From the NCBI GenBank assembly GCA_001724265.1, contig MEDY01000374.1, forward strand, positions 1 to 58,259: a DNA stretch of 58,259 nucleotides, read 5' to 3'. The notes beneath the pieces were generated by a model. It had not been told where the DNA came from. It worked only from the letters and a program-made list of their open reading frames with translations, and searched no databases. This DNA is from Rhizaria sp. SCN 62-66 (Eukaryota). A program made the translations under genes and the position numbers. This document shows positions 9,420 through 55,798 of this stretch, in pieces. Within the stretch, counting starts at the first letter, position 1. Every line of letters begins with the position of its first letter.

Positions 9420-9561
9420 GCGGACTGTCAACTGGCGCTTGTGAAGCGCTGGCTAAACGGCAGAAGAGTTGAGTGAAACCAAAATGCACAAACGTTAACA
9501 ACTAAATTACAGTATTAATAATTTCATTATACTTGTAAAACTCAATTTGACGATCATTATA

Positions 9562-12715: not shown

Positions 12716-15700
12716 ATGAGCCGCTCGGGCTCCGTGGTGACCCTGCAGATTGGGCAATGCGGCAACCAGGTCGGCACCCACCTGTTCCACACGCTCGCGC
12801 GCGAGGCCGCTGCGGCGGGACCCGGCGACCTGCAGGACCGCATCTTGCACCAGTTCTTCCGCGAACCGGTCTCCGCGACCGAGCGCGCGGCTGCTTCGAC
12901 CTGCTCTTCCGCCGCCGCGACTGCTGACGGGCTGGCGGCGCCCTCGGCGGCCGGGCTCCCGATTGCGCGCGCCGTGCTCATCGACATGGAGCCCAAAGTG
13001 ATCGGCGACGCTCTAGCCTCCGCGAGCAGGTCCCCGCTGTGGCGCTACTCCCCCGCGCGCACTTTCTCGCAGCAGTCCGGCTCGGCCAACAACTGGGCCT
13101 TCGGCTACGCCGTGCACGGGCCCGCGCACGAGGAGCGCATGCTCGACACGGTCCGCCGCGAGGCCGAGTGCTGCGACACCTTCGGCGCGGCGCTGCTGTT
13201 GCAGTCGCTCGCGGGCGGCACCGGCAGTGGCGTCGGCACCTATGTCAGCGAGCGCCTCCGCGACGAGTACCCCAAGGTGCAGCTCGTGAACCAAGTTGTG
13301 TGGCCCTACAGCATCGGCGAGGTCATCGTGCAAAACCTCAACGCGCTGCTCTCGCTCGCCCACCTGCACGCCGCCTCGGCTGGGCTGCTCGTGGTGCAGA
13401 ACGACGCCGTACACAACATCGCCGTGCAGACGCTGGGCATTGCGCGGCCCAACTTCGATGATCTCAATGGCATCATCGCCACTCACCTGGCCTCGGTGCT
13501 GCTGCCTGCCTTCCACGCCGTGCCCAACACGCTACCGCCGGCCCATGCAGGGCAAATGCCATTGTATAACAGCGCTGATAACGGCAGCGCTGCGTACGCG
13601 TCGCCGTACTATAGCCCTTACACGGACCCGGGGCACTTACCCGCATGGGCGAATGCGTACAGCGGTAGCAACGGCAGCACCACTTACGCCGACATGGCGT
13701 CGCTGCTACGCTCTGCAACCGCTCAGAGCAGCGCCACTAACTCCGTGAGCTCCCGTTGCTTGTCGCTGTCCGATATCACGGACCACCTGTTCTCACACCC
13801 CAGCTACAGGCTGTCGTCTTTGTCCGCGATCCCGAATGTAAGCCGCAGCGCACAGCGGTTCGAGGCCACGACCTGGGGCTTCGTGACGCGCCACCTCCTG
13901 CAGGCACACATCACTCCGGGCCACGCGTTCGGGACCAACCCTTACAGCACCAACATGGGCGGCGGCGGCGTGAGTTCTCAGTCACATTCGCAGTCTGATC
14001 CGCACGACGGTGAGGGCGCAACTGACCGTGAGCAGACAAGTGACCGTGAGCGCCTGAGTGACCGTGAGCGCGACCGTGAGCGTTACCAAGGCGCCAGCGC
14101 CGTGAGCGCGGGCGGCTTCGGGGCCGGCAGCGCCGCGGCCGGCGCCGGGGCCCGCGCCCGCCGCGCCGCGGCCGCGGCCGCGTCCGCGCGCAACGCGCAG
14201 CGGTACATTGACTGGGGCATTGAGCTGGGCCGCCCCTGCCACCTGGACGCGGGGTCGAGGCTCTTCGCGCCGCCGCCTACTTACACCGCCGCGCAGGGCA
14301 CTTACACCGGGGCGGGCGCCTTGAATTCGAGGCTGCACCCTGGCGCTGCCGCGACGGCCAGTGCTTTTTGCGCTGGCTCTAGCTCGAGCTCTAATGCGAG
14401 TGCGAGCGACAACTGCAGCGAGAGCACTCGCCAAGCGACGACGTATAAGAACGATTTCTATGATGGCAGCGAGTTTTGCTATGAGTTTGAAGAGGACGAG
14501 GAGGAGTGGCACCGCTCTCTCTCTAGTTCGTATAACAACATCAACAGTCACAACAACAACGATGACTACGACGATGATGCTAGTAATGACGCCGACAGCA
14601 ACAACAGCATCAGGCACGGAGGTGCTAACTCCCATTCCCAGTCTGGCCAGTCTGGCCAGTCTGGCGCGACCGGCCGGCCCTCGTATCACAGCGCGCGCGT
14701 GCCCCGCTTTGCGCCGCGCCCCTCGGCCGCCTCTGCCGCCGCCGCCGCCCGCTCCCGCGCCCGCCGCTACGGCGGCAACAACAGCAACAGCAACGGCGCT
14801 GGCACTGGCAATGCTGCGAATGAGCACGGCAGTGCTGCGCTGTCTCCCTCGGTGGGCAGCCGCAGCGGCCGCGGACCCCGCGGAAGGGCTTTTTTTGGTC
14901 CCGCGTCTCGGTTCCAGTCCGTGCACGGGTTCTCCCCTGCAATGCCATTCACTCATGGTACGTTCGACAGTGTGAGTGACAAAGCGACAGTCGCATGCGA
15001 CGACGACGTACTAAATCACTGTTTGATGACTTTAATGGACCTTATAGTTGATAAATTTGATAAAGCCGATTTATTGTATCAATAATTGTTTTCCAATTTA
15101 TTTTTACTCACATTTATTAACATCTTTTTCTTTTTCAATTCATTCCCAGGCTCCGCCAACCACGCCGCCGCCACCCGCGCCCGCAGCGGCACCAGCAGCG
15201 CTGTCCCGGTGGCCGACAACACCGCCGGCTCCCGTGGGAGCGGCGTCGGCGTCGGTCTAACCGGGGTTGGCATGGGCAGCGACTACCACCACCACGGGAG
15301 CAGTCGCGCTGCGTCCGCATTCGCGGGGAGCGAGTTCACGGTGGCTATGACTCCGTTCGAGCTGGCCGGCATCCTCGAGGCCGACGCGGCCGCGCTCGCG
15401 CTCGCGCACAAGCAGCACAACAACAACGCTAAGTCGAGCGCGCAGCAACAACAGCAGCAGCATCAGTATTGCCGCGACTTCTACTCCCCGTCCGCGGGCC
15501 TTACCAGCGCCCCCCCCGACGCCGCGCCCCCAGCCAACAAGTCTCTGGCAGCGTACCTTATCCTACGCGGCGACGGCGCCTCGGCGGCGCTGGCAACGGC
15601 GGCGCTGGGCAACGCCACGGCCGTGGCGGCGGCGGGGGGCGGGGTCGGCGCGGCGCCGTGCCACACTGCGTACCCCGCGTTCACGCCCACTGCGGCGGCC

Positions 15701-16177
15701 TCTGCAGCGCTTGTATTGACCGGGAGTAGCCCAGGGAGCAGCGCGAGCACGAGCGCGAGTGCGGCTGCGGCAGCTGCGGGGGCCCGGGCCGGGGCTCGGC
15801 GGGGCGACGCCTCGGCCGCCGCCACACTGGCTGCGCTCTCTAGCAATGCTAGCAGCAACAGCGGAGGCAGCAACAGCGCCGACGAGCCCGAGTGGTTGGG
15901 CTTCGCGCACCCGTCGCTGTACTCGTCGCACAACCCCGCCCCGTTACTCTGCGGCGTGGCGGCCGCGCCCTTCAACGGCGACGCGCGCTCGGGCGCCGTG
16001 TGGGCCGTGTCGCAGCGCGTGGCGGCGCCGCTGTCGCACGTGGTGGGCCGCGCGTGGCAGATGTTCCGGTCGGCTGCTTACACGCACCATTATACCGCGC
16101 ACGGCGTCGAGGCCGAGGACTTCGTCGCGCACTTTGCCACGCTCGAGGGCGTCGTGCAGGCCTACCAGAACATGTGA
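12716..16177 (+). CDS. TUBD1: Delta-tubulin with large low-complexity insertions; exons 12716-14957 and 15150-16177, about 1089 aa
   Basis: Motifs LQIGQCGNQVG, ARAVLIDMEPKVI, QSGSANNWAFGY, LAGGTGSG, VWPYSIGEVIVQNLNALLSL and a C-terminus AWQMFRSAAYTHHYxxHGVExEDFxxxFATLExVVxAY are typical of delta-tubulin. Stop is TGA. Confidence 0.92.
14958..15149 (+). other. Spliceosomal intron in delta-tubulin (192 nt, phase 1)
   Basis: GTACGT donor, AT-rich body, long pyrimidine tract, CCAG acceptor; G|GC gives Gly in frame with the downstream ORF. Confidence 0.87.
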
Positions 16178-16610: not shown

Positions 16611-18002
16611 TCAGTCAAGCCCGTCAGCGCGCCCACCCTGCTTGGCTTGCTTGAACATGACCTTGCGGACGATGATCATGAGGATGAACAGCGAAATCAG
16701 CGCCACCAGTATAAACGGCAGCTCGGACCGCGGCCGCGGCGGCTGCGGAGCCCGCGCCCGCTGCTGCTGAGGCTGCGCTGCTGCTGCTGCTGCTCCCGCG
16801 GCTGCCGCTGTGGCAGGCGCCCGGTGCCTGCGCTTGCGCCTCTCCGTGACCTCACCACCACTCGCCGCAATAGCAGCGCCAGCAGCGCTCGCGCTGGTAG
16901 CGGTATTGGGAGTGGTCGTCGCACTAGCACTGCGAGCAGTCGTCGCAGCAGAGTTCGCGGCTTGATTGTCGTTCTTGCTGCTGTTAGCATAGTCTTCGCT
17001 GTCACTGCTATCTGAGCCAGAGCCAGAGGCAGAGGCAGCAGTGGCGCTAGAGCTCGTGCTCGTTGTGCTGCTGTTGCTGTTGCTGTTAGGCAACACAGCA
17101 GGAGCAGGACTCAGACTGCTGCTACTGCTACTGCTGATACTATTACTGTTATTGCTAACAGCAGTTGTCGCAGTTGCAGCAACAGCAGGAGCAGCAACAG
17201 CTGGGGCAGCTGCGGCGGCAACAGGAGCCGGGGCAGTAGCAGCAGCGACAGCAGCAGCAGTACTGGCAGCGCTCTCGCTCTCAGCAACACTCGTACTCGC
17301 ATTCGCAACAGCAACAGCAGGAGCAGCAACTGTAGCAGCTGTGGCAGCAGTGGCAGTGATCTCCTTCTTGTTCTTGTTCAGATCGCTGTTGTCAACGTCC
17401 GTCTTGGCCGCCAACGCCTCGGCCTGCTCGCTAGTCATAACGCCGCCGCCCGCCGCGCCCGCGTCTGCGTTGGCGCCGGTGCTGGCGTCGGCGCCGTCGC
17501 CGGGAAGCAGGCCGAGGTTTGACTCCTCGCACGTCGGACAGCACCAGTCTGCCGAGAGGCGCGCCAGCTCCTTGCGCTCGGGCTCGCCCCAGTCCAGCGC
17601 GCCCACGGCGTTGTCGCCCGGCGTGGGGAAGAAGGCGATCAGCGCGAGGAGCATCTTCTGGATCGACCACGAGGGCTGCCACTCCTCTGGATGGAAGCTC
17701 GAGATCGACAGGCAGACCTTCTTGTTGAGCTCGAACCGGCCCGAGGGCGTCAGGAAGAGGATGTCGGGCGGGCGGTAGGGATAGTCGGGGGGCAGGATGA
17801 GGCGGCCGTGGTAGCGTCCGCCGGCGAAGGGCGAGTTGGCGGGCCCGCGGATGGTGAAGTGCCACTCGAAGAGCGACTACTCGAGCGGGTACGCAGTGAA
17901 CATCGGGGACGGGTTGCGGCACATCTCGCGGTACTCCGCCTGCAACCGGCGCACCGCCACCGAGGACGGGTTTCCGCCCGCGCCGCGCTTCTTGTCAGCC
18001 AT
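16611..18002 (-). CDS. UBE2J1: Tail-anchored ERAD ubiquitin-conjugating enzyme E2 J1 (Ubc6e/UBC32-like), 463 codons including one in-frame TAG at codon 42 (17879-17877)
   Basis: Manual translation from ATG 18002: AVRRLQAEYREM...AYPLE*SLFEWHFTIRGPANSPFAGGRYHGRLILPPDYPYRPPDILFLTPSGRFELNKKVCLSISSFHPEEWQPSWSI, continuous with the 347-aa ORF. The catalytic Cys is intact and there is a C-terminal TM helix (LPFILVALISLFILMIIV). Stop is TGA. Confidence 0.9.
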
Positions 18003-18578
18003 TGAGAAGAGCGGTACAGAGAGCGCTTGGTGGGGGAAGGAGTGAGAGGTCTCTCTCTGCTTGGGATGCTTTGCTGAGAAGTGCTATGTGGGGGACATAC
18101 AAGTTTCAAGAAAGTGTACAATAGTGAGTGGTATTCATTGAGTGCGTTGTTTGTCACATGCACGTAGAGTCTCGGTTGACGATAAATACAGAGAGAATTC
18201 TATTACTTTAGATCCCTGCTGACTGGGCAGCTCGTGTTTGTGGTCGAGTCGAGGTCATTGCTCACGGTCACCATTTTCTTACTCACAAGATAGCCGTTGA
18301 GAAGAGTAGGACAGAGACGTTGGATGCAGCGAGTGATTGAAGACATCTGTAGAGACGTGTAATCTCCGTATAATGACACTGTGGTGAAATAATCAAAATA
18401 ATTACAACATTTTCTATTGTATCTCTATTTTGTTTCTCACAAATCCCTCAAATTCTTCCCCATTGAACCCCTCGGTTTCGTCCCTTGCCTTCCCAGACTA
18501 CAAGCACAACTTCCCCTCTCTTCCCGCTGTTTCCCGCTCTTGTTTCGCTTCTCATCGTTACCAACACACATTAAGCGC

Positions 18579-19917
18579 ATGATGAACCACGTCGAGTTCC
18601 AGCAGCAGGAGAACTACGACCCGAAGGCGCACGCCGAGGCCGCGCAGGCCGCCGCGCACTCGGCGGTCAAGACGGCCGCGGCGCCGCTCACCGTGCCGCG
18701 CACGCTGGTGCCCAGCACCACCGTCGTGGGCGGCAGCTGGCGCCCCTCGGTTACTGGCCGCTGCTCGCGCCCCTGGCGCCTCTCGGACTTCGAGGTCGGA
18801 CGCGGGCTCGGCCGCGGCAAGTTTGGCTATGTCTACTTGGCGCGTGAGAAGAAAACCCACTACATCATCGCGCTCAAGGTGCTGCTCAAGAAGCAGCTCA
18901 ACGACGCTGGCGTCGAGCACCAGCTGCGCCGCGAGATCGAGATTCAGTCCAACCTGCGCCACCCCAACATCCTGCGTTTCTTTGGCTACTTCCACGACGC
19001 AGACCGCGTGTTCCTGATGATCGAGTACGCCGCCAAGGGCGAGCTGTACAGGCTCCTGCAGAACAAGGGTCGCTTCGACGAGGCCACCGCGGCGCGCTAC
19101 ATCCTCTCACTGTCGCGCGCGCTGGACTACTGTCACTCGAAGCACATCATGCATCGCGACATCAAGCCCGAGAACATCCTTGTCGACGCGTGCGACGAAG
19201 TCAAGATCGCCGACTTCGGTTGGTCGGTTCACGCGCCGCAGAACCGCCGCGGCACGCTGTGCGGCACGCTCGACTACCTGCCGCCCGAGATGGTCAACGG
19301 CGAGCGCCACACGCACGCCGTCGACCTGTGGTCGATCGGCATCCTGCTGTACGAGTTCCTTGTGGGCACGCCGCCGTTCGAGGCGCCGACGCACAAGGAG
19401 ACGTACCGGCGCATCGCCAACGTCGACCTTCGCTTCCCCGCGCACGTGGGACCCGAAGCGCGCGACCTCATCAGCCGCGTACGTCGACCGCCCGCCCGCA
19501 GATATATACTCGCTAAAACACACTCACGCACATCGCTTGAACAGAACCTTGTCGACGTATGCGCAAGTTTTGATTGTCTTTATGTGTGTATTTTGATGCT
19601 TTGCATTTGTATATTGATTTGATTTCCTGATTATTTCCGCTAATTATGATCTTTTTTTTTTTGTGTGTGTTCTTTTGTTGTTGTTGTTGTTGTGTTCCTT
19701 ACAGCTCCTGGTCAAGAACCCGCAGGACCGGTTCAAGTTCAGCGATATTCCCACGCACCCGTTCATCGTCAAGAACCTCGTCTCGACCTCGCGCGGGCCC
19801 GCCGCGCAGCAGCAGCAGTACCTTCAGCAGCAGCGACAGCAGCAGCAGATGCAGCAGCAGGGGCAGGGCTACGGGGTTAACGCCGGCCCCCCGCCCCCCG
19901 CCGCCGGGCACTATTGA
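18579..19917 (+). CDS. Aurora-family Ser/Thr kinase; exons 18579-19478 and 19705-19917, about 370 aa
   Basis: [59 protein letters not shown] and [16 protein letters not shown] are Aurora signatures. The splice ARDLISR|LLVKNP completes subdomain XI. Stop is TGA. Confidence 0.95.
19479..19704 (+). other. Spliceosomal intron in Aurora kinase (226 nt, phase 0), containing a (TTG)n microsatellite
   Basis: GTACGT donor, GCTAAT branch-like motif near 19639, T-rich tract, ACAG acceptor. Confidence 0.9.
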
Positions 19918-20245
19918 GTGTGTGGCCTGAGTGAAAACGGCAAGTTGAAGGACGTATGTACTCCACATGTTTTTGACTTGGTTTGAGATTGGTGACGTTC
20001 AGAATGATGTGGAAGTAAGTGCGAGCTGAGAGTGGATCTCAGTCGTCTTTAAATATTCCCTTGCACTGTGCAAGGAATCATCATTGTCGTTAATGGAGAT
20101 ATGAGCAGGCCAGATATGAACAAGGTCAGTGGTTAACACATCACCTTCTGTCTAGTTTTAGCATTTCTATTCGCAATTTAAATACAACATATTTCATTTA
20201 AAGAAAAGCACTCGTGCAGCAAGAGTCACTTACCATGGTTATTTA

Positions 20246-20275
20246 GATCTACCTTGAGTTGATCTACCTTGAGTT
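20246..20275. repeat. Perfect 15-bp tandem duplication GATCTACCTTGAGTT x2
   Basis: Seen directly in the spacer between two convergent genes. Confidence 0.85.
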
Positions 20276-20456
20276 TTTGGCAAATTAACACGCTCTTAAT
20301 GAGATTTGATTCGGTCTGATATTGAATGGTGACTGCTGAAATTCAGAGATGTCTCTCTTGAAGCTGAAAAGGCTCAATACATTGAATTTTTATTGCTTAT
20401 TGCTGACAAAAAGAGCTGATTTCAGATTCATACCTTTGCTAAAGTCAAGCTTCTGT

Positions 20457-23400
20457 TTACTTCTTGTTGTTGTTGCGCTGCTTAGCGATCTCTGACTGCA
20501 GCCACTTGACCACATTCTTCGACGTATTATCGCTTGCGCTCGCATTCACGCTCGCGTTGCTGTCACCAGAGCTAGTTCCAGTCCTCTGACTGCCTTGACT
20601 CTGGCTGAGACTTTGGCTCGAGCGCTGACCGAACCGCTGGCTCTGGCTCCGACTCTGGCTCTGGCCATAGCCGCTGCCCCCATCCTCGTCGCCGTCGACA
20701 TCGAACTCGTCGTTGTCGTCGTGCTCTCCGGGCGTGTCCAGCAGACTAAAGAGCATCTCTTGGCTCAACACGTCGCCCGCGCCCAGCGACTGCGAGCTCC
20801 GCAGCCGCGACTGCGACTGCGAGCCAGAGAGAGACTGTGTGGGAGGAAACAGCAGACTAGGCGGCTGAGCTTTAGAGGCGCCCCTTGTGCTCCTCGCACG
20901 CTTCTCAGCCACACCCACACTTGGACTTGCACTAGCCTTGTTCTTGCTGTTGATGCTGATGTTGTTGTGACTCGCGGCGGCACTAGCTTGCGCGTTGGCA
21001 ATGGCGTTTGCCCTGGCGAGGGCGTTGGCGTGCTCGATGGCTTTGAGCTCGGCGTTGCTCGGCCGGCCGGGTCCGCGCTTGTTGCTGCCGCTGAAGGAGT
21101 ACAAGTCCCCCTGGACCTTCGCCACCTCAGCCGCCGCCGCTGCCGATGCAGCAGCAGCAGCAGATGCAGCATCAGCCTGCGCAGTTGCAACCGGCCCCTG
21201 AGACCGCGCCTGAGACTGCGTCTCAGTCCGCGTATCACCCCGTGTATCGGCCCGCGCGTCGGCCCGTGTATCGGCCTGTGTCTCGCTGTACACAAGCCTG
21301 CGGGCAGTGGCGGCGGTGCGCTGGCTCGTTATCGTGGCCGCAGCAGTGCTTGCATCGGTACCAGTGACGGCGTCAATGACAGGCTTACTCCTCGCAGCAG
21401 CGCCATCAGCAGCAGTGGAGGCAGTGGCCCGGTGAGGCTTGGCGGTCGCCACGGTCGCACGCGCACTCGGAGCGAACTCGGCCTCCGACTCCGACTCTGA
21501 ATCTGACTCTGCCGCGCTCTTGCTCTGGCCCGCATTCACAGCTGATGTTGCCTTATCGTAGTCACTGGCAATCTGAGCAGGAGACGCCGTCGCCGTCGCT
21601 GCCTTGCCAAACACCCTGTCCGCCGCCGCCGCCGCGGCCGCCGCGGCCTTGGACGCCGCGGCCGCCCTCGCCGCCGCCTGTGCCTGCGACTGTGCAAACT
21701 GCGAGACTGAGTACGGGGAGTGTGGCGCGGGGAGGCGCACGGCCGAGGGACTGGCGCGCGGGGGCAGTTGGCGCGGGGGCGGCAGCTGGTCCGTATCGAG
21801 CAGACTCTCGTCCCCGCCCGAGAGCAGCAGCAGCGCAGAGGCCGACGACAGCGTCGAGGCTGAGGCAGCGCCTGAGGCGGGCGTGGGCTTCGAGAGCGAT
21901 GACAATGACGATGACGACACAGCAGTGTCGCTGTCGCGGTCAGTCATAGCAGCGCCGACACCAGTGTGGTGCGCGGCCTGACCGCCCTCAGCACTCTGAG
22001 CGCCGTTCCCAGCGAGACCATTGGCGGCGTTGCTGTGGGCGGCGGCAGCGGCAACGGTAGTGGTGGCGCCGAGCAGCTGGTCGAGGAGGTCGCGGTCGAC
22101 GTCGGTGCGCTCTTCCTCGGGGACTGAACATTTGGTGATACAAAATCGGAGAGAATTACACTGGTGAGCACATTGATACAAACAAAATTCACGTGAACAA
22201 CACTGAAATAGCCACATTCACTTGAATAGCAGATCGTTGCACAAATAAGACTAATTTCCAAACACTTTTGACTTCATTTCATTTCATATGCAATCACAGC
22301 AGCGGGAACGCGTGACTGAACCCATGACTGGACGTACTTGCGAGCACCTCGGCGACGCGCTTTGCGCGCATCTGCTTCGCGCTCTCGCGCGCCACGGCCC
22401 ACTCGGCGTCGTGCGCCTGCCGCGCCTGCTGCAGCCGCTCCCAACGCGCCAGCGCCTCGGACTGCTGCTGCTGCTGCTGCACCTGCACCTGCTGCTGCTG
22501 GTGGTGGGCTTGAGACTGCGTGTGTTCATGTGAGGCGGGGAGGGCGTAGGTGCGGCGGCCGGTGACTGCACTGCTGGTAAAGGTGTTGGGGTAAGTTAGG
22601 CCGCTCTTGGGGGGCCGGCCGCGGGAACGCTTGACCACAGGTGCCGAGTACCATTGGTCCTCATCATCATCATCATGATCATAGTCGTCGTCGCCGTTGC
22701 CGGCGGCGGCAGCGGCGGCGGCAGCAGCGGCGGCGGCGCGGCCCTGTAAGAGCGCCCGCAGCCTCAGTTGCTGCTCGCTGTCACTGTCCGCGTCGTCGTC
22801 ATAATCGTCGTCGCCGTTAGCGGTAGCAATGTCGCTGTCGCTGGAGTCGTCGGCGAACACGCGCATGCTGCCCCCCTTAGACTTCTTGTACCCGGCCCCC
22901 TCAGACTCGTCCAGAGAGCCCCTGAAGGCCGTGCGGCGGCCCGTACGGCGCACACTCGTCACCTCGACGCCCTCACCGGCACCCTCACGCGTCAGGTCGA
23001 CTGCGCTGCGGCTAAACCCACGCGCACCCCCATGCGTTCCATAAGTGCCCAGTGCGCCGCCGTCATCGTCGTCCAGGGTTAGCGGACGTTTGAGGCCCGC
23101 AGGCACGCCAGGCATGCGGCCGCGCCTGCCGCCGGCGCCGCCACCTGTGCCAGCGATCTTTGGCCTAGCCGAGAGGAGGCCGGTGCGGCGCATGACGTCC
23201 GAAGCGAAGAACGAGGGTGGGACGGTGAAAGCGTCGGCCGGCCGGTCCGGGTGCAGGAAGCTCATCCGCCGCGGCTTAACCCCTCTACGCGCACCGGCCC
23301 TCACGCTCTCCACATCATTGTCGTTGTCGTCGTCGTCGGCGTCGAAGGCGTGGCGGCGCTGAAGCAGCAGCTCCGCCGCCAGTGCCATCGCAGAGGCGTC

Positions 23401-37522: not shown

Positions 37523-37561
<39 letters not shown>

Positions 37562-42733: not shown

Positions 42734-43429
42734 CGTCAACAAGATCTTGTAGATTTAGACTGCGAGATGAGTTTGGATCGAGTTATATATATAAGCAGGG
42801 GAATTAATTCTTTATATTGAGTATGAATGTGTTACATAGATGTCAATCAAATTCGGTTATGAGTGCGTTTGATGCGATTTAGCGGCTGCAACTGGCGTTT
42901 GTGGTTCCCAGGGACCGAAAGCTGACTGCAGTGTCAGCAGAATACAAAAAGTCGCGACTTTGAAACTATCTTTCGTCAACCTAGATCAAAGCAACGACTT
43001 TCTATAGTGATTTGAGTTTGTGATATTATCTTTTTAATTATCTTTTTCGAATGTTCCGTCTTCACCTGATTCCAGCTTGCGCGCGCGTCGGTTCTCTCTC
43101 AACGGCTTGCACCTTCACTCCCGTCACTTTTTCCCTTTGCTGCGCTCTATCAGCTCGCACTTTTACGCAGTTTAGGCGACCAGCCGATTTCAATTGCACG
43201 GGATTCTTTATTGGTTGCACACACATTTGTTGCCAGTCTCCCCCTGGCCCACAAAACTCTATCTCCGCCTCTCAGGCCTCTCGCGACTGCTGCAGAGCAA
43301 TCTCTCCCCACAGCCGCAGCAGCTCAGTCGCAACAGCAGTATTGGCAGCGGCCAGGCTAAACTCTAGCGCGCCTAATGCCTTATTTGCGCCCGGGCGCCC
43401 GCGCGCGCCTGGCCCAGACATGGCGTGCC

Positions 43430-46400
43430 ATGACAACGTATATATTCCTGCTGTTTCTGTTGCTGCCGCACACGACCTTGTCAGTCAACCCGTCGCATCA
43501 CTTGCGTTACACCGGCAACGGCAACGGCAACGGTCGCGGCAGCGGAAACAGCGATGGAAACGGTAACGGCAACAGCGGGCACCAACATGGCGCGCGCAGC
43601 GCACAGCCACATCAGCAACCGCAACGTCAACCTGGTGCAAGTTCTACAAGCTATGCGAGTTCCGCAAGTTCTCACTCAGGGCCTCGGTCGAGCGACTTCA
43701 CGTTCATCAAGCTCGCAACGGGACACATTGCTGCGTACCTTACCCCGCCCGTGGCCGCTGCCGGTGCAAGTGCCGCGCCGGCCGATCTGAGTGCCCCCGT
43801 CGGCGTCGCCCCAGCGGAGCTATTGTGGGTCCGCGATCCCAAGACTCTGATCAACCCGCGGTCTGAATGCTTCCTGCTCTCTCCGTCAACGGCGACGACG
43901 ACGCCGACAACAGCTGCATCCGGTTCTGGCTCTGACGCTGGTTTGCGCCCCAGTTCTACGTCCAGGGCCGGTGGCAATGACGATGACGCGGCGGCAGGGT
44001 CGACCATGTCACAGTCTGAGCCACACACCGCGACCGGCACTGGCCCTCGTTCTACCTCTAGCTCTAGCCATCGCTCTTCTGGGCTTGATACACGCGAGAA
44101 TGAGGCCAACGCGAACGACAACTCTAAGGCCCCGCAAGAAACACTGACCACAAGAACAGCAGCGACTCCGTCCTCTGCGACTGCGACTCCGACTGCGACC
44201 GCTGCCGTCGCCGCGTACTCCCCGCCTGCCGCCGCCGCTGCGCCCCGCGCGGCCCCGCTGGTGTTGGTGCAATGCGCGTCTGGCGTCACGCTGACGGCCG
44301 CGGCGCCGCTGCACCTGCACCGCGCCTGCGCAGTCATGCAGAGCGCCATCGCCCCCACACCTGCCTCGGACCGTAGCGCGAATGCGCAGGCAAATGCGCA
44401 GGCGGCGAGTGCTGACCGCAGTAATAACAGGGCGTTTGCCGGCGACAGCGGGCTTGAAATGGCGGCTTACGTTCGCGACAACAGCGCTCTCCGTGGCAAC
44501 GGAGTCGGGAACAGTAACAACAATAATGACAACAAGCAACAACAGCAACAGCCGAAGCAGCCGAGCTTCAAGCAGCAGCAGCAGCAGAGGCGTGGCGCTG
44601 CTTTCACTGCTGACAGCGACGACGGCGATAACGGCGCTTACATCGGCGGCGCTGGTAGCAGCACGGGCGGCTTTCTTTTCTCTCTGGACGGCTTAACTTA
44701 CTCGCGCTCGGTGGAGACGTATCCTGTCGCGATCAATGCTTTGACCGGTGACCCTCTTGATAATGACATTACTCACGGCCACTTTAGCAAGGTTAACAAC
44801 AACAGCAACAACAACAATGATCGTAACAGCAACAGTGCTTTCAGCTCGAGCTCGAATTCTGGCGCGAGCTCCAATGGCGCTCGTGACACTGCCAGTGCCA
44901 GTGCCAGCGCAAGTGCGAGCTCTCATACGGGCGATGATGCGGGCGACAACGCGGCTGTAGTGCACCGCCTGTGGCTGCGGCGCACCGCGGTGACCGTGCG
45001 CGCGCGCGACCCCGCCGGCCGCGTGCATAACGTGCTTTGCCACGACACTGTGGAGCTGGAGCTCGCGCCGCAGGCGGCGGACGCTGAGCACCTGTCTGAG
45101 TCCCAATCTGGGGCGCAGTCTGAGTCGGGTGCTCACAGTCACGGGCATTTTGGCACTCGTTCGAGTGGCGACTCTAAGAGTCAGAGCGGCGATCCCAGTG
45201 AGCGTGTTGTTCTGCCACCGCTGTGTATGTTGGTCGAGCAAACTGATTTGCTTTCTGCGCAGACTCCAGACACCAGCGCGAACAGCGACATGAAGAGCCA
45301 AAGCCGCTCTACAAACAGTCATTCTGACGCTGACACGGGCGTTAGTCACATCTCGTACCCATTCTGCCCGCACACGCGCAGAGATTCGCGGCTTAACTTC
45401 GACCAGTGTCTTGCTGAAGTGACAGCATCGTCGACAGGAGCAGCAAAGACGGCGAGTGTCGGTGCTGCGAAATCTGCAGTTGCAACTGGGGAAAGTAGAG
45501 CCGGTGTAGTGACCTTGCCTCTGCTGCCTTCTGCGACTGGTGTTGATGCTGATGCTGTCGCAGTCACCGTTGCACATATGTTGCACGCTAAGTCAGGATC
45601 TAAGAGTCCCAACACAGTCGCGAGCACGAAGGTTGCAGATCCGACTGCAGGAGTCGGAAGCAAAGATGGAGCATCAGGCGATAGCGCTGCTAAGCAACAA
45701 CAGTCAGAGTCACATTCTCAGCGGTTGCACTCAAGGTCTTCACAGCCACAACCACAGTCTGCCCGGTATGTGTTGGTGTGTTCACAGAGCATTTCACTTA
45801 CTTCTGAGGACTTTTTCGGTCCCGCAGTCACTGCCAACTCTGCTAACATAAACGCGACTGCTGCCAATGCTGCCACTAAGAGTACTTATTCTGCCGACCA
45901 CGCTGCCGCTTCTGAGTCCTCGGACTCAACGTGCGCTGTACCCACCCACTCGAGCGGCCCTGCGTGTCACGTACTAACATCGTTCATGGACTGGCACTGC
46001 CACAGCTCCTTACATTCCGGCGGCATTTTCAACAGCACGATCGGCGATGCATCAAGTCGTCCCGGCGTTAGTGCGAGCTCTAGTTCGAACGTCGCCGGTG
46101 ACTTTTCGTTGCCCCGTTCCAACACCCGCGCCTACAGGTCTCTGCTGCGGCAACTGCGCGCCCCCGGCGGCGTTACGGTGATTGCTATCTCGGATACACT
46201 TGCGACCGCAGCAAACGCGGCTGCCGTAGGCGCTGCTTCTGCGTCCAGTTCTGTTGCCGGCAACGGTGCTGCAGCGACCGATGCCGATGCCGATGCAGAC
46301 AAGAACAGTGCGAGCGTTGTTGATGGTGCGACTCCTGCTGCCGACAGTGGAATTGTGCTTGTAGTCACAGCTGACAACGGCAATAGCAACGCCAACACTC

Positions 46401-49400
46401 AGATTCCTAAGATTACTCACAAGACCAGCGACAACGCCAACACAGCGACCTCTGACTCTGGCGCAAGCGACACCGAGAGTGAGGGTGATGTTGACAACAG
46501 CGGCAGTCGAAAAGCAGCTGTGGCAGCATTCTCACCACAGTCACTTGTTTCAGTGTCTCGCGGCACGTTTGCTGGCAAAGCGATGACGTTGTCGGCAACA
46601 TCTCTGAACGCTGTCAGTACGTACCATGCTGATCAGCATGAATCACACGAGGTTCAAAAAAGCTCGACTCCTTACATTGACGATCCTTACGGATTCCCTG
46701 ACTCCGACGACGACGGTGACAACGGCACTAGCGATGACAATCACCACGATTCTAGCCATGGTAGCGACACACGCAGTAACGATGTTGTTGTGGCGATGAC
46801 TGTTGGCTCTCGTGAAATGCCGTTTGTATATGGTGTTGCTGACACGCTCACCGTCGCAAAGCCTGATGTCACTGTTACTGCCACTATGCCAACAACCTCA
46901 ACGATTGTCCCTCGATTCGGCTCTGGCTCTGACGCCGCCGAGTCCATGTCTGACTCTGAGTCCGGCTCCGCTGTTGTGTACATTGGCAGTGATTCCTACG
47001 CGTTGCTTGCGCGGCTGCTTGAGCTCTCCGCCCGCAAGCTTGCCGCTGCAGCCTCAGAAGCTGCAACAACTGGCACTCGTCCTGGAAAGGGGACTTCGAC
47101 AGCGACAACAGCGGTGCTGCCGTCCTATTTCCCGTTGCACCCGCTTTCCGCTGGCAGCTCCATGAATTCAAGCAAAACTAGCGATAACGACCACGCTACG
47201 CGCCCTGGAGTTAACTCAAATACCAACAGTGATAGCACTGACTTTGACATTCAAAACCGGTTGCCGTTGCCTCCTCCGTCGTAGTCGTATTCGCAGTTAC
47301 AGGCGCTGCTGCCGCCGCCGCCGCTGCCTGCGCGCTCCCACGCGGCCACCCTGACATCTTACTTAGCCCCTTATAGCACGTTTGCTTTTGAACCGTCGAA
47401 CAATCTGTACAAGACATTTTTCGGTCCGACCGCTCCTAGTGATGGCGATATCAACAATAATGTTAAGTCTGACGAGAGCGACATTGTGGGTAATCTGCTC
47501 TTGCGACCGCTGGCCCTCGACGCTTGCGACTGCGCGCGTGTCAAGACCGACGCTACGGCATCATCATCGACCGTACGCTCTGCCGCGGCCTCCGTCTTTG
47601 GCAAGTCAGCGACGACGATGACGAAGGCGGCAGCGACCGCCGTTGATGCGGCGTCTGCGCTGGGCACTGGGAGGATTACTTCGGCCGTTGACTTTGACTC
47701 TGAGGCTATGCTTGCAGAAGTGCAGGCTTTGACTGACTCTGCTCTCGCAGACTCCGCTTTATTCGACGATGAGACATTCAACACTGTGATGTCTCGGCTG
47801 GCTGAGCTGACTGAGCAGCTCACTGCCGTTACCGATGCCACGACGAACAGCCATAGCCGCAGCCGCAGTCGCTCAAACAGGGGCAACGATGACAGCCAGT
47901 CGCTTACTGTGGTTGCTGCTGCTGGGGAGAACCTAGTCAAGTCTACAAAGTCGACACTCACTGACGGTGCAAGTACCTTTGGTGCTGGCGCTGGTAGCTC
48001 ACGTGATACTCCAAGTAGTCTTGGTTTCGAACTCGAGCTGGTGACGCACTACTTAGACGACGAACCTTTACAACACGATCACATGCACGATGGCAACACC
48101 GGCGCCGGTACTTCTGCGGCCCACGGTCGATCTGCGAACGCTAAGCCGTCTCCAGCAGCGGGCCACATGCCCCTTGAGGTCCTAGCGGCCGCATCTGCCT
48201 CCGCCGCTGGCTCTGCTATGACCGCCTCCAGTGATCGTGACCGCAGCGGCAGCGTTGTTGACGGCAGCGCAGTTAGCTGGGATGCACTTATCGCTCGCAA
48301 GCAACAGCTGCTGCAGCTGCTGCTGTCTGCGCGCGCCGATGCGTGCGCCTGTGTCTGCGCCTGCGGTCGCCGCTGCCGCGCAACTGCGGCTGCCGCTGCG
48401 AGCTCTGAGCGGTTTGCAGTGGCTCAGCGCGCGACCAGTGCCAGTGGCGGCGTTGGTCTTAGTGTAAGTGTGAGAGTCAACGGCGACAGCGATGCTCGTC
48501 TGACAAGGCCTCCCGTTGACGGAAATGGTGACGCTGTTGAAGATATGGGTGCCGTGACGAAGTATATTGATGTTGTCAGCTATAGCGATGATGACATCAC
48601 AAGGATCAATAGCGATGGCGACGATAACATGTATTACTCTGACTATAGTGAAAATGACAGTGACGGTGATGACTATGATTACGAGTCTTTGCCATACTGC
48701 GACTCCAACGTCATCATCACGGCGACGACAAAGCCAGCTAAAACGGCTACGAGCAGTCCTCTTTCTCACACCAACAAATACTTGAATAGCCAGAACCATT
48801 TGGAGCTGGAGACGTGTGCTGCCCCTGATTTAAGTCGCAAAAATTACTTAGATTCAGACGCAACTGATAGTTGCCCTATCGTGTTCCGCACTTTGCCGCC
48901 CGAGCCGAAGACCAAGTCAAGCTATCCGTCATACTTAGATGGCATCGATGCTTACACGGATATTGACTTAGATCTGGACTTGGACGGCGCAAACGAAGAC
49001 GACACCAAGGACGACGACTCTCGGAGCGCGTCTAAGGGTGTAAGCGTCAGTGACGAGATGTGCATTGCTCCGTTGCACCCCGACGCTGAATCCGACAGTG
49101 GTGATTCTGGAGCTAATAACAATGACGATACTCAAGACTACAGCATGCCTTCTAGTTCGCGCTCGCACTCGCACTCGCGCGCGCTCTCGCACGCGCACTC
49201 GCGCTCGCAGTCGCAGGCGGAGGCGGATGCGGAGGACGACGGCGTGATCGAGCTGGGCGACGACTGGGACGACGTTCCGCTCTCCGCGCTGCCCGTGGCA
49301 GTGTCCGTGGCCGCAGACGGCCAGGTGACTGTGGGCAGCCAGCACGCCGCTGGGTCCGCTTCCAACCCGGCATCAACGTCAGCAGGAGTCACTGGGAGGA

Positions 49401-52400
49401 TCACTGACTCTAGTTCGAGCGCTAGCGGCAGCCCGGGTAAGCCACTGCGCTGCCGTCCCCGCATTCGCACTCACAGTCACGATCAGTCGCGCCACGCACG
49501 TGCTCGTTCCCGGACTAGTCGCGGCGGCGCCCAGTGCCTCCATACAGCCCACGGCCATTCGGCTCACGGTCAGTGCGCGCCCCGCATCGCGGCCTTCGCG
49601 CAGTCGGCGCTCGCGCTGTCGGTGCCCGCGGGCTGTCTGGCCGCGTGTCCCGCTCGCTGCGGCCGCGCGCGCTCGCAGGTCCTGCTGGCGCACGCGCACT
49701 TGCTCGCGCTCGCCAAGATCGAGGCGCGCTTTGCACCGAGGCAGCAGGCTGGCACCAGCTCTCGCACTGGCGCTGGCGCTGGTTCGAGGTCAAGTGATGA
49801 TGTTGCAAAGGGGTATTACTGTGCTGCGATCGACATCAGCGAAGGGAAGTCTCCACAGTCGCCCACAAGTGCCGATGACCTTCGCGGTAAGTGTCCCGCG
49901 GCGCCTCAAACGGTTGGCGAGGGCGATGGAGACATCGACACCAGCACGCTGTCCCAAGGCGGCCTGACTTCGCAGTCCTCCGCGGGTCTGATCTCGCGCC
50001 TGCTGCTGCGCTGGTCGCATCGCAGCCCGCTGGCGCGGTGGCTGCACACGCGCTCCCAGTCGACCGCGCTTGTGCTTGCCCGCACGCGCACTGCGCTCGT
50101 CACCGCGACCGCGCGCCTCGGCGCGGGTGCCGCGCGCTCGCAGTGGACGCTCGCCGCGGCGCTGCTGGCGCTGGCAGTCGTCGCGGCCGCGCTGCGCAGG
50201 GCCGCCGCGGCGCAGGCGGCCGCGGGCGCGGACTGGGGCGAGGACCCTGAGGCCGCGGCCAGGGCCGGCGTCACGGCTATGGCCCCGTTGGCGCCCGCAG
50301 CCACTGCGCTCACGGTCGTGGGCAACAGCGATAGTAGCAGGAGTAGCAACGCGACTGCGAATGAGACCGTTGTTGTTGCGTTGATTGTCGGTGACGATGA
50401 CGGCTTTGTGTATTCGTTCCCAACAGTCGACTCTGTTAACACCCCGGCTGGTGATGAACAAGCACCCGCAGACTCTCTCAACGCTGCCGGCGCTACGAGT
50501 GATGATATTCGTGCCGATCTCTCTGCTTCTGTTGCTCCCGTCGCTGTCCACAGCTCTGCCGCAGCGCCCACACCGCTGTCCTGCTACTGGCACGGCGCGC
50601 CCGCGCTGCTGCAGCGCCGCAGCAAGGCCTTTTGCCCTCCGCAGGCGCTGTGGCAGTCGCGCGCGCTTGCAGCCGCCTGCGCCGCTGAGGCTAACGATGC
50701 GCAGATGAAGGTGGAGGCTAAGGAGGCACTTACACTTCGATCCGCTAAGGCAGGCGCACCGGTCTCTAGCGTCCATCACAGTCACAATAGCTCAAGTTTG
50801 AGCGCTGCTATTGCCGGCTCTGGCGCTTATCCTCACGCCGGCGCTCGTGCCAGCGGGCGCGTTACGATGGCTCTGCTGCAGCTGCTGGCTCTGGCCCGCG
50901 TGGACAAGGAGGCTGCGCTGCTGAGGGCAGCTGCGGCCGGCGTCCCAGTTCTGTCTGCCACAGTTGCGGCCGCGATGAGTACTGCGTTGGTGACGGCATC
51001 GGCCTCAGGCTTGCCCGCAGTCGACGGAGGTAAGCAACAGCAGCGTGGCCGCAGCCGTGGTAATATTGGCGGCAGTGGCGGCGGTAGCGGCCGTGGCAGC
51101 CGGAGCAATAGTGGACACAACACCCCGTTGAGCTCCCCGGGGCGGCACTTGAATTCGCAAGTCAACGGCGCCGGCATCGGTGTCGCTTCCAACAACACCA
51201 GTGACGCACTGAGTGTGATATTGTCTGCTCGCATTTCAACGCCAGGCAACAATAACTCGAACGCTGGCACAACTCATAGTTCCGGCGCTGCTGGCGCTGT
51301 AAGCGTTGCCACCACGTCTATCAGCGGCGTGATGCCGCTGCTGGCCCTGCTGCAAGACCGCAGTAGTGCCTACTTAGTGCTGTCCGCGCACCTACCCCTG
51401 CTGCCGCATCCTTACACTTACGGTTTCAGCGCTCATCACCCCTTGAGCCGCACAACAGGTTTCGCGCCCTCGCGGCGTCCGCAGTCGATTATGCGCTACC
51501 GGCTAACTGCCAACTCGCCCTTGCTCAGCACGTACGCTGGTGCGGGCGCAATTTATACTCACGGCGCGAGGGGCGCGGCACTGGGCAGCGACAGCTGTGT
51601 CGCCGACGCGCCTGTGTCGCTGCTGGCCGCGGTGACAGCGCTGCGCTTTGTGGCCCACGTGCACTCTACTGTCTTTGCTCCTGACTCTGGTCACAGCAGC
51701 AACAACAATAACAACGGTAGCGCGAGCAGAAACAATGACATTATTTTTAACACGAATGGTGCTCTCAAGTCTGCGTGTGGAGCTTTTGGCAACGCGGACC
51801 CGGTTGACTGCTATGGCGCCGCTCACGGTCTGTATCAGTCTCTTACACCTGTAAGTAGTCGCTTTGCAGTCAGTTCGCACAGTCATCGCACGCTGCTGTT
51901 CCCTAGCCCCGCTGCATTGTCATGGGCGCGCGGCTTAACTTACGCCCCCACGGCACACCACCGCGCCGCCACTACCGCGGGGCCCTGGGCAGCGGCGCTC
52001 GCGGCTGCGCTGCCCGCCGCGGTGGCCGCCGCTGCCGCCGCTGCAGCAGCCACCGCGAGTGTGACACAGAGCGACGCCGCGCGCGCGACAGCAGCGAGCG
52101 CTAGCCTGACGACGATCCGTGCTGCTGGCGTTTCGGGCGGGCCCGCGCCGCCGCGGCCGAACTTCGACTGGGTCCCCACGCTGCTGAGCGTGTGCCGCGG
52201 CGCTCTCACGGCGGCGGCGCGGCTGCACGTGACCGTGGGCGCCGCTCACGGTCATATCTGTCCCAGGACGCTGCTGCTCACGCCGACTACCGCGGCGGCC
52301 GCGAGCGCCGGCTCCGTGGCCAGCGCTGCGGCGGCCACGGCGGCCGCCGCGGCGGCGACTGCTGCGGTTGCTGGCAACAACTCTGGTTCTAGTTTTAGCT

Positions 52401-55400
52401 CTAGCTCGAGTTTTAAGTCGAATGCCAGTTCAAGCTCTAGTTCTAGCTCGAGCGCTGGCTCGAGCCCTTTGGCTGGCGTGACTGCGGGCAGCGCCGCAGC
52501 AGCGACTGTTAGCAGCGTGTGCGCCGCTTGGGTGGGCACGTCGCCCGCTGACGTCAGCGAGTGGACGCTTACACTCACGGGGCTTGAGGACGCGGCTTAC
52601 CTGATCGATGACGAGGCGGCTTTTTTCAAGAGCATCCGCCGCAGCACCACCTCGAAGAAGAAGTCGGTCTGTGTCAATAAGGACAAGAGAGGGAGTAGCT
52701 CTAGTAGCAGCGCTGAGCATGATGAAGAGGCCGCTTTACTGCAAGACTTTTCTTTTTCTACCAGCACGACCACTGGTGTTAATGCGACTGTTACGAGTTC
52801 TGAACTTACGGTTGGTTTCTTAGCAGATTATGCGTCTGACGATTTTTTCGGTCCCGCACTGGCCCTGCTCGCTTTGCCCGAGTCAGAACCGCGCTCGCCG
52901 TTTTACTCGCTGTCACAGTCGCAGCCACGGTCGCCGCTCGAGCTTCAGCCGCTGCAGTCCTCGTCGTCTCTGTCGCAGTCCGAGTCGGAGTCGCAGTCGC
53001 AGTCGCCTGTGACAGATTCCGAGTCGGACCCTGCCTCTTCTTCTGCTGCAGCGACTGCGGCCGTGCAGCTCCCGCCGTCAGTGCCGCTGCCGTCGCGCCG
53101 AGTGCTCGCCGTTGCGAACGCTCTCCTGGCATCACTTTTACCGCCGCCGACGCACAACGCCAACGGCAGCGCTAGTTCTTATAGGAGCACTGAGCAGAGC
53201 TCTATTGATGCTGCTGCTTCGATCAATGGCGATGCTGGTAGCACTGCCAGCGTGCCTGTGTCTCGCGCTGTTGCCGCCGCTACCGCTGCTTTGGCGTTCA
53301 CTGCGCCCGAAGTCGCCCTCGCACGGCTTAACTTCCTGTCGGGCGTGTGTCTGTGGGTGCAACGGGCCTTATTGGCCGCTGCAGCGCGATATCGGGCCTG
53401 TGACGGCAAGTTGCAGCCGCAACAGGGGACACAGCAGGGGCAGTACTTAGACAAGAATGGAGGCATTATGTCTCGGAACAACACGTCAAAGTACACCTTA
53501 TGCAACTATTGTAGCAAAAAATCCTCATCGAAGCCGCACTTGCTGTCTCCCACCACCTCAACCGACTCGCACTACACTGTGCCGTCTCTGCCCTTGCTCC
53601 CGGCGCCCACGGTTGCCGCTGACTCCTACTCTCTGGGCTGCTGCATGCACTTCATCTTCACGCGAGGCGCGCTTCCGTACACTTACAGCGATGGTACTTA
53701 CACTGGCACAGAGAACGGCGAGTCATCAGCGAACTGCTCACACACAGACAGCAGCAGCAGCAGCAGCAGTACTTCCATCACTGTGAAGCACTCGGCGTCG
53801 TGTCTGTCTTGCCGCCTCCGCTGCAGTGCTGCTGCGGTGCTGCGCCTGCGCACTCGGTTCCTCGCCCCGGTCACCGCGCGCGTCGCCAGTCGCCGTCCGC
53901 TGCTGCCCCCGCTGGCGACGCTCGGTGCGAGCTTCTCCGCTGCCACTGCCGCTACGGCGGGGACCGTACACGGCCAGTCTGCGGCTTGCATGGCGGCGCC
54001 TCTATCAGTGGTCACGGCGATCTCGCCCACCGCTGTGCTGCTGCAGGGGGCATACACAGCGAAAACTGCACATGCGCTGCCTCACAAAAACACCAATGCG
54101 GAGAGCACCCATCGCTCAGGCATCAGCTCCAGCCTTAGTTCGAACGGCATTGTGGCTGCGGCTGCAGGGGCCGTCACCTTCCCCGACGGCCACATTTCTG
54201 CCAGCGGCATCACCCACTCCAGCACTGGCGCTGCTTCTGCCTTGATATCCCCCACTGCGGCGCTGTCACACCTCCCGCCCACGGTCGCCGCCGCGGCCGC
54301 GCTCTCGACCGCCACCGCCGCCGCCTCGGCCGACAGCGCGGACCCGTTCTCGGCGCTGCCCGCGGCCTGGCAGGGCCTCCCGGCCTCGGTGGCGGCCCCG
54401 CTGGTGCATCTCGTTGGCCTGCTTACTGCGCGCGCGCCGCGGCGCCGGCCCGCCCCGCTGGCCGCGCTGCAGCACCCGCTCTTCTGGCCCGCAGAGCGCA
54501 AGGCCGCGTTTCTCGTGCACGTGTCCAACCTGGCCGCCGCGAGGCCCAGCGGCGGCGCCAACAGCGGCAACAGCAACAGCAACAGCAGCTGCAATACCAG
54601 CGCCGGCGGTGCTGGAGGCCAGGTGGGGCTGTGTGCGCCGCTGACGGCGGGGTACCTTGACAAGACCAGCTCAAACACGACCTCCGAGACTGCTGCTGTT
54701 GCTGCTGCTGCTGCTGCGGCTGCTTCTGCCTCTGCGGCGGCGCTGTCACTGCCACTGCCCTGCGCTGCCGTGCTCACCGGCGCTCTGGAGCGGGGCGCCG
54801 GCTTGCCCCTCACCGCTCTCGCGCACTTATCCGTGCCCCCAGTTCATTCCTCGACTTCAGCCCATGTTGCGAGTGCGATTAGCGCGGTCAATGCTGTGGC
54901 ACCCGTGGGCTGGCTGCAGGCCACCACCCCGCCGTCCGTGCTGCGCTTGCTGCTGTCCTCGCGCCCCTTCACCGAAAACAGCATAATCGAGACGCTGCGC
55001 TTTGTGAGGAACCGCGAGGCGCACTCCAAGGACGCCCCTTCCGAGAACCTGAGCAACAGCAGCGGCGGCGGCAGCAGTAGTAGCAGCAGCAGCAGCAGCG
55101 TGGGCGCGACTGACGCGGACTCAGGAGCCCTTAATAAGACCCCGGGCGCCACTGCCGGCGCCCACGGTCTCTCTGCGGTCTCCACAGCTGTGCCGAGCTC
55201 CGCGGCGGCCTCCCCGAGCGCGCAGGCGAGGCCGCCCCCCGGCCAGAGCTCGTTCCGCGAGCTGGTGGGCAGCGGCAGCGCGACGGCGGGCCGCATGCGC
55301 TTTGTTGAGGCGCGTCTGCCGCTGCTGCTGCTCTCAGTCTACACGGCCGCCGCCGCGACTCTGCTCAGCGCTCGCGGTCACGGCGGTCGCGGTGCCGCGG

Positions 55401-55798
55401 GAGGCGGCGGCGCCGTGCGTGACAGGGCGTGGGTTGCTGCCGCGGTCGCCAGGTTTGCTGAGAGGGCACTTAAGACGGGTGATTCAGGAAATCTCAGTGC
55501 GGGAGGCGGTGATGTCAGTCGTCGGAACTCTAGTGCTACTGCGTTTGCTGAACGCGAGCTCGATATCAGTGACGGCTATTGTGAAGACGAAAGTAACGTC
55601 GGGAGCAACGACACTGACAACGACGATGATTCGACTGCTGAGGCGGACGATGACGAGGATGAGGACGAGGACGAGAGCGAGAGCGAGCCAGTGACCGTGA
55701 GCGCGTTGACTGTGTCCGAGGCGGGCCGAGAGGTGGCCGCGTTTTTCGATTTTGTTGATCCTGCGATGCTCAATGCACTGCAGCAGCAACACTGGTAA
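43430..55798 (+). CDS. IRE1: IRE1-like transmembrane (pseudo)kinase / KEN endoribonuclease, about 4120 codons with one in-frame TAG at 47282-47284
   Basis: Signal-peptide-like MTTYIFLLFLLLPHTTLS. Luminal-domain-like fragments SLDGLTY...AINALTG and LWLRRTAVTVRARD. TM-like segment near 50144-50200. Kinase C-lobe APE, ADSYSLGCCMHFIFTRGALPY and RRRPxxxxALQHPLFWPAERKAAFLVHVS. KEN segments SIIETLRFVRNREAH and ARLPLLLLSVY. ORFs 43376-47284 and 47486-55798 share one frame with only a TAG between them. Stop is TAA. Confidence 0.8.

Follow-up and report, generated by a model that had tools for sequence, protein, structure and literature searches.

In-frame TAG codons in a tail-anchored ubiquitin-conjugating enzyme gene and in a giant neighbouring gene suggest translation of UAG in a wastewater eukaryote

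A Ubc6-type enzyme gene with an in-frame TAG codon

The window, by which we mean the whole stretch of DNA analysed (contig MEDY01000374.1, positions 1-58,259), carries about 12 genes on both strands of its 58 kb, several of them as very long single exons. Exons have a guanine-plus-cytosine (GC) content of about 60-76%, and intergenic regions and introns are AT-richer. The subject of this report is the reverse-strand gene in the stretch 16,611-18,002, which by homology encodes a tail-anchored ubiquitin-conjugating enzyme (E2) of the UBE2J1/Ubc6 type and whose reading frame contains a TAG triplet at codon 42 that is, as argued below, probably translated. The gene has the following features.

16611..18002, reverse strand: UBE2J1/Ubc6-type tail-anchored E2, single exon of 463 codons, one of them the in-frame TAG, with TGA as stop codon (open reading frame, Pfam, phmmer and database homology)
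17877..17879, reverse strand: TAG triplet in frame at codon 42, within the loop preceding the conserved (L/I/M)FEWHF strand (sequence, homologue alignment, contigs X2, X4 and X6)
17712..17714, reverse strand: TGC codon of the catalytic Cys97 (KVCLSIS), 3' of the TAG (sequence; aligned to the Cys of Ubc6 and UBE2J2, LCLSMS and LCLSIT)
16653..16721, reverse strand: predicted hydrophobic tail anchor at the C-terminus, approximately residues 428-450 (Kyte-Doolittle hydropathy alone)

The frame opens with the ATG at 18002-18000, reaches the TAG at 17879-17877 and continues through 421 open codons to the TGA at 16613-16611, and its translation reads MADKK...FTAYPLE-x-SLFEWHFTIRGP..., where x stands for the TAG. 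An earlier note on this DNA had described the TAG as lying in frame within the UBC domain of a gene that stays open to its membrane anchor, and this description was borne out. The Pfam family UQ_con spans the TAG (residues 19-130, E=1.7e-19), in agreement with the fold of a UBC catalytic core, and the most hydrophobic 19-residue window of the protein, ELPFILVALISLFILMIIV, occupies residues 427-445 of 463 with a Kyte-Doolittle value of 2.81, so that the C-terminus appears to fit a tail anchor, as expected. When the E2 was compared with the PDB by phmmer, the matches included yeast Ubc6 (9en5_A, E=3.9e-40) and human UBE2J2 (2f4w_A, E=6.6e-38), in alignments that start at residue 14-16, end at about residue 150 and are ungapped at x, opposite which Ubc6 has D and UBE2J2 has S. 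In the same alignments Cys97 pairs with the Cys of Ubc6 and of UBE2J2, which upholds the note's view that the catalytic residue is intact, and TPSGRF pairs with the family motif TPNGRF. The first in-frame Met beyond the TAG, Met117, lies 3' of Cys97, and a start at the ATG at 17654 would give a product without this residue, as the note had also stated; such a start was rejected.

With UBE2J1, UBE2J2 and yeast Ubc6, which are tail-anchored E2s of the endoplasmic reticulum acting in endoplasmic reticulum-associated degradation, the E2 of the window shares the UBC fold, a catalytic Cys in a CLS(I/M)S context, TP(N/S)GRF at the place of the HPN of other E2s and a hydrophobic anchor at its end. It differs from them in its in-frame TAG at codon 42 and in a low-complexity linker, rich in Ala, Ser and Asn, that connects core and anchor over about 260 residues (roughly 165-425). 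The best database matches carry the source name 'ubiquitin-conjugating enzyme E2 J1'; the closest protein is from a diatom (62% identity), and the next are from chytrids and other fungi. No homologue above 62% identity was found among 5.8 billion proteins within a length range of 254-811 residues, and the best identity among 1.84 billion representative proteins was 61%. The 347-residue open reading frame of the window that belongs to the E2 was absent from the protein collection, and the full-length form was not found at 254-811 residues. Against a metagenome contig collection the best identity was 59%, the contig of the window itself being absent from the results, and a genome contig collection gave no match for the E2, nor for the Aurora kinase relative P0126.

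The TAG codon is genuine and exonic

Alignment of the E2 with its 120 best database homologues by MAFFT confirmed that, as the earlier note had proposed, the TAG fills exactly one residue of a colinear alignment. The column is occupied in 120 of 120 sequences, by D (34), N (27), S (17), H (17), T (15), E (8) and G (2), and the columns beside it are near-invariant, with L in 113 of 120 and E in 107 of 120 before it and D or N in all 120 after it. A codon-usage score trained on the other genes of the window amounted to 0.25 for codons 1-41, a value reached by 1.6% of intergenic windows of the same size. Scores of the coding type were obtained on both sides of the TAG, in line with the codon bias that the note had reported.

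The same letters were found in three studies (2017-2025) distinct from the likely source sample. Contigs X2 (record 10, 17774-18308), X4 (record 17, 17682-18439) and X6 (record 27, 17783-18049) each cross the TAG with 0 differences to the window, and because of this match an assembly or sequencing error at the codon is excluded at the contig level. The table of variants, drawn up from contigs of the four runs compared with 17450-20450, from which rare variants are dropped in assembly, contained no other letters at 17877-17879. CAG or GAG in the reads, the outcome that according to the earlier note would have overturned its reading, did not appear in this contig-level check, the codon being TAG in all three further runs that cover it.

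Introns of the organism are best known from two reference cases:

19479..19704, forward strand: intron of the Aurora kinase gene, GTACGT...ACAG, about 39% GC (protein homology)
14958..15149, forward strand: intron of the tubulin gene, GTACGT...CCAG, 192 nucleotides, about 34% GC, containing TAA 15083 (protein homology)

Both of these fully read introns have U-rich tracts preceding the AG, and intron lengths are 192-226 nucleotides. On the reverse strand, GTACGT or GTAAGT is also found at 22337, 11320, 9333 and 3027, each time with a steep drop in GC content. The donor is GTACGT at five of the six sites (19479 and 14958, forward; 22337, 9333 and 3027, reverse) and GTAAGT at 11320 (reverse), and this unusually uniform 5' splice site might aid in placing the organism. 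In contrast to the known introns, with their approximately 34-39% GC, the sequence near the TAG of the E2 has 65% GC. One GT..AG segment of 16 nucleotides, GTAGTCGCTCTTCGAG, begins within the TAG and its excision would shift the frame, and three consensus-like in-frame GT..AG pairs over the TAG would excise 414-600 nucleotides, each including the start codon and the conserved UBC core. An intron removing the TAG, which the earlier note had likewise dismissed, was therefore rejected on the grounds of the ungapped column, the GC content, the donor survey and the frameshift caused by the 16-nucleotide pair. The TAG at 17877-17879 is genuine DNA, in frame, exonic and at a one-residue ungapped position.

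A second in-frame TAG in a giant gene

A further TAG with open sequence on both sides was detected on the forward strand.

43376..55798, forward strand: low-complexity protein encoded in an open frame of 4,140 codons with a single TAG (stop-to-stop scan)
47282..47284, forward strand: second in-frame TAG, codon 1303, with coding-like same-frame sequence on both sides (scan and codon usage)

According to the stop-to-stop scan, the open reading frame 43361-47284 ends in this TAG and the open reading frame 47285-55798 begins at the next codon in the same frame, the TAG linking 1,302 with 2,837 open codons. From this TAG to the ATG that follows there are 111 codons, with a codon-usage score of 0.327 in frame, as compared to -0.88 and -0.65 for the two remaining frames, which are riddled with stops. 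For reference, in-frame coding windows had a mean score of 0.30 (standard deviation 0.16) and intergenic windows one of -0.445 (standard deviation 0.24), and 0.65% of 11,040 intergenic windows reached 0.327. The GC content of the 111-codon stretch is 58%. Of seven flanking regions without an assigned coding exon, six have 38-47% GC; the seventh (4866-6176) has 43% GC and contains a GTAMGT match at 6014 on the forward strand with no GC drop. Two further regions were tabulated, 2835-4193 (51% GC), which contains the splice site 3027, and 8970-10754 (44% GC), overlapping both G4 and the exon that lies upstream of 9333. Of the in-frame GT..AG pairs that enclose the second TAG, 153 in number, not one has a GTAMGT-like donor. 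This TAG lies in a protein without homologues, and the case for it is one of coding statistics.

Pfam gave no match above the cut-off for the whole giant protein. Near its C-terminus there is a sub-threshold match to KEN/Ribonuc_2-5A (E=0.01; 16.4 bits, cut-off 23.3), and from this sequence likeness the product of 43376-55798 may be IRE1-like. The N-terminus of the giant protein is hydrophobic by eye, and its residues 2259-2277 rank second in hydropathy.

Stop codons in the window

Within the 15,011 codons of the gene-model frames, internal in-frame stops comprise two TAG, no TAA and no TGA. The 12 gene ends are TAA in seven cases and TGA in five, and none is TAG. On the assumption that TAG makes up 15-35% of terminators, the probability of finding it at none of 12 ends is 0.14 to 0.006. 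Frameshifts were absent from the genes of the window, including exons of 3,906, 2,837 and 1,415 codons, and none of the other conserved genes (WD40/EML, tetraspanin, tubulin, Aurora kinase and DHHC) has an in-frame TAG. The remaining stops with open flanks were rejected as candidates, being antisense to GC-rich genes, in short non-coding open reading frames or in 5' flanks (TAG 2846, 4191, 18086 and 26910). Similarly, TAA 15083, the only TAA in the window linking two open reading frames, was rejected as a recoded stop: it lies inside the AT-rich tubulin intron of the form GTACGT...CAG and only seems to join two open reading frames because the intron length of 192 nucleotides is a multiple of three. 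Neither an eRF1 gene nor any Rfam family was detected within the window.

Distribution of the organism

The segment 17450-20450 was found in whole or in part in 19 public runs from 11 studies (2015-2025), all of them bioreactor, wastewater, activated-sludge or microbial-fuel-cell metagenomes; half or more of the sampled words were present in only four of the 19 runs. The Aurora kinase open reading frame of the window is on record on six contigs (JGI/IMG, Logan and ENA), and its nearest relatives show 77% and 75% identity. The pieces compared from the three other studies show 0 differences to the window over their length. Taken at sequence level, these data point to a widespread and nearly clonal protist with proteins that share no more than about 77% identity with any on record.

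One of the runs, X6, is labelled RNA-Seq cDNA and marked 'probably DNA'. Its coverage includes the E2 coding region to 18049 and exon 1 of the Aurora kinase gene to 19477; it is bare over the intergenic segment 18056-18560 separating these two genes and mostly bare over the intron bins, with a depth of 0.38 at 19470-19570 and then 0. The DNA runs X2 and X4 cover 18056-18560 and also show no depth over the Aurora intron bins. The coverage pattern of X6 is a weak hint only, and its bare parts prove nothing. The poly(A) RNA run X11 covers the E2 at 17450-17592, with the TAG outside this segment, and it is no demonstration of transcription because it also contains Aurora intron sequence (19497-19747).

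Translation of UAG and alternative explanations

On the sequence evidence, we consider it rather probable that UAG is translated in this organism and that UAA and UGA stay terminators. This reading is favoured because the two TAG codons stand in 12 otherwise perfect genes that show no TAA, TGA or frameshift lesions, and because the 421 and 2,837 codons 3' of the two TAGs are open and coding-like and no gene ends in TAG. The organism is an uncultured, intron-poor eukaryote with GC-rich exons, known from wastewater and bioreactor metagenomes, in which UAG would not be a normal terminator and would be read as an amino acid, UAA and UGA ending the genes. The likeliest agent would be a tRNA whose anticodon is CUA, descended from a tRNA for Gln or Glu, alongside an eRF1 that is poor at recognising UAG. 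The E2 gene would then give rise to a full-length, active, tail-anchored enzyme of the UBE2J1 type with one polar residue at position 42, and the giant neighbour would be made as a single protein of 4,140 residues. Translation of UAG, the decoding agent and the amino acid are all three what we infer from the DNA. As to the residue, the column facing the TAG of the E2 is polar and variable, and of the amino acids that UAG encodes in other systems only Glu is present (8 of 120). Gln is chemically close to the residues of the column, and one column cannot settle the amino acid. The earlier note had suggested Gln or Glu; its prediction of a polar residue agrees with the column, and the choice between the two is left undecided by it. 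The note's central claim, that UAG is decoded, gained indirect support from the second in-frame TAG and the lack of TAG ends in 12 genes, and two fixed nonsense mutations are compatible with the same data.

Several observations weigh against translation of UAG. The sample consists of two in-frame TAG codons in 12 genes, a density of 0.13 per 1,000 codons or 0.17 per gene. TAG is strongly avoided in frame, with two cases against off-frame counts of 31 and 151, the off-frame counts being taken with gene coordinates of which one was misframed and the in-frame cases from corrected frames. No tRNA gene occurs in the window. The second TAG was read from the contig of the window alone, stop-free runs in intergenic sequence reach 124 codons in some frame, and no homologues were found for the region 1000-1700 of the giant protein among candidates of 2,277-7,245 residues. 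At the TAG of the E2, the contig data are blind to a minor or heterozygous sense allele, and the ancestral codon is unreadable from orthologues, the nearest of which has about 62% identity. Persistence of the TAG across studies is no sign of selection, because the populations sampled are nearly identical. Finally, by the counts excerpted from PMC5304391 and given in the next section, UAG in the window is 10 to 30 times less dense than in Iotanema spirale and exLh.

Under the standard code, the two TAG codons could each have arisen by recent nonsense mutation, in which case both genes, that of the E2 and its giant neighbour, would be young pseudogenes or truncated alleles that are fixed, or the major form, in a near-clonal cosmopolitan population. 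TAG would then be shunned in frame as any stop is, and nonsense hits would mostly be TAG because far more codons are one-step precursors of TAG (1,934) than of TAA (622) or TGA (550), as counted in coordinates that include one misframed exon. The populations compared are identical, so a single clone could have spread both lesions, and E2s of the Ubc6 type are dispensable in yeast. However, two independent losses in 12 genes would be needed where 15,011 codons hold no frameshift, TAA or TGA, and the downstream 421 and 2,837 codons have kept coding-type usage (scores 0.28-0.33); two losses that leave the downstream frames open and coding-like could only have happened very recently. The lack of TAG at 12 gene ends would be left unexplained, and an intact, near-identical E2 copy was looked for without success, both among the 5.8 billion proteins at 254-811 residues and among the 1.84 billion representatives. 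The two genes show no added stop or frameshift and have kept their coding signal, as would also be seen in a very young pseudogene. On balance we regard such a pair of mutations as unlikely; if two nonsense alleles are involved, the finding is ordinary. An explanation that we find still harder to accept, and would call improbable, is site-specific readthrough by a near-cognate tRNA at these two TAG codons, at a frequency sufficient for some full-length protein, UAG ending genes elsewhere. It would agree with the rarity of in-frame TAG and with the location of both codons at substitution-tolerant sites, namely a variable polar loop column and a low-complexity stretch. Both codons also share the context G-TAG-TCG, which is weak evidence because 12 copies of GTAGTCG are found in other frames or strands of the window, and it was rejected as a signal. 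CAR-YYA and CUAG-type sequences are known contexts of UAG readthrough, and they are absent here, the next codon being TCG at both sites. Moreover, a search for a downstream stimulator gave no stable fold (z = -0.35 and +1.68 versus shuffled sequences), a rate of a few percent at codon 42 of a housekeeping E2 would be costly, and the absence of TAG from 12 gene ends is not accounted for by readthrough either.

Editing of the mRNA, for example from A to I with conversion of UAG to UGG (Trp), would also account for intact genes with a genomic TAG. Some filamentous fungi carry out such A-to-I editing during their sexual stage, with UAG as the preferred triplet. In the E2, however, Trp is found at the column in none of the 120 homologues, no hairpin is predicted at either TAG, and the only run over the codon labelled as cDNA, X6, shows TAG unchanged. 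We therefore consider editing very improbable. An artefact, be it an error of assembly or sequencing or a short intron by which the TAG would be spliced out, can draw on nothing but the general prior that single odd codons in metagenome contigs can be errors, and it conflicts with the identical letters in three other studies, with a codon that fills exactly one ungapped residue, and with the length, GC content and GTACGT donors of the introns described above; we deem it hardly credible. Returning to a translated UAG, it is tentatively conceivable that the organism is at a very early stage of a code change, in which UAG has gone as a terminator, can be decoded and is just reappearing as a sense codon at substitution-tolerant sites (about 0.13 per 1,000 codons). 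If so, it would be a natural intermediate of 'codon capture', a stage long passed by the known lineages with UAG as a sense codon.

Comparison with known systems

Reassignment of UAG only, with termination left to UAA and UGA, is represented among others by the Blepharisma code (NCBI table 15). To our knowledge, nuclear code changes confined to UAG are limited to a handful of lineages, and we know of none that is GC-rich or so low in the reassigned codon. A search of the literature for a GC-rich wastewater eukaryote with UAG recoding, with supplementary files outside its reach, found none. Excerpts of PMC5304391 describe two systems: in Iotanema spirale UAG encodes Gln, with 204 in-frame UAG in 126 genes (1.6 per gene) and gene ends of 104 UAA and 15 UGA, and in the sainouroid rhizarian exLh UAG encodes Leu, with 384 in-frame UAG in 71 genes (5.4 per gene) and gene ends of 56 UAA and 15 UGA. 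As far as these excerpts go, the window resembles both in having an in-frame UAG in a conserved gene, no UAG terminators and UAA still as a stop (seven TAA and five TGA), whereas it differs from them in its 2 UAG codons in 12 genes, in its GC-rich genome and in being known from 58 kb alone. With respect to aligned positions, one in-frame UAG of the window lies in a conserved domain (that of the E2) and one in a protein without homologues; with respect to termination, UAG ends none of 12 genes, a small sample.

Among ciliates, the excerpted text of PMC11687900 reports repeated UAG reassignments in phyllopharyngeans, and that of PMC10553269 a code in which UAA and UAG differ in meaning. In these excerpts, as would hold for the window, the meaning of UAG shifts independently of UAA. 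Unlike the ciliate cases, the window is a 58-kb multi-gene contig of about 60% GC with GT-AG introns and TAA as a stop. It is presumably also unlike ciliate macronuclear DNA. The genes of filamentous ascomycetes in which premature stops are corrected are likewise intact genes with a genomic in-frame TAG, but in the window no sign of editing was seen, no hairpin is predicted at either TAG and Trp is unsuited to the column. If confirmed, translation of UAG in this organism would add an independent UAG-only case and might show an early phase of stop-to-sense reassignment. Gene callers that apply the standard code would split or truncate genes of this organism.

Other genes in the window

The gene at 12716-16177 on the forward strand encodes a divergent member of the tubulin family that in a PDB search is about equidistant from gamma- and beta-tubulin, and it carries hundreds of residues of low-complexity insert. 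On the reverse strand, the segment 20457-26583 contains the open reading frames 22294-26583 and 20457-22217 in different frames, separated by a gap of 77 nucleotides and without a Pfam family; judged by the GTACGT donor and the sharp GC drop at 22337, the two are probably one gene with an intron. A single exon of 3,906 codons with 70-77% GC occupies 26964-38684 on the forward strand and gave weak leucine-rich-repeat matches only; long spurious open reading frames are present on its antisense strand. A small gene at 10706-11635 on the reverse strand, with a GTAAGT intron at 11320, shows in its exon 2 a weak match below the cut-off to Polyketide_cyc2/START-like proteins (E=6e-4), and its product starts with MGCNSSK, which we take to be a motif of the N-myristoylation/palmitoylation type.

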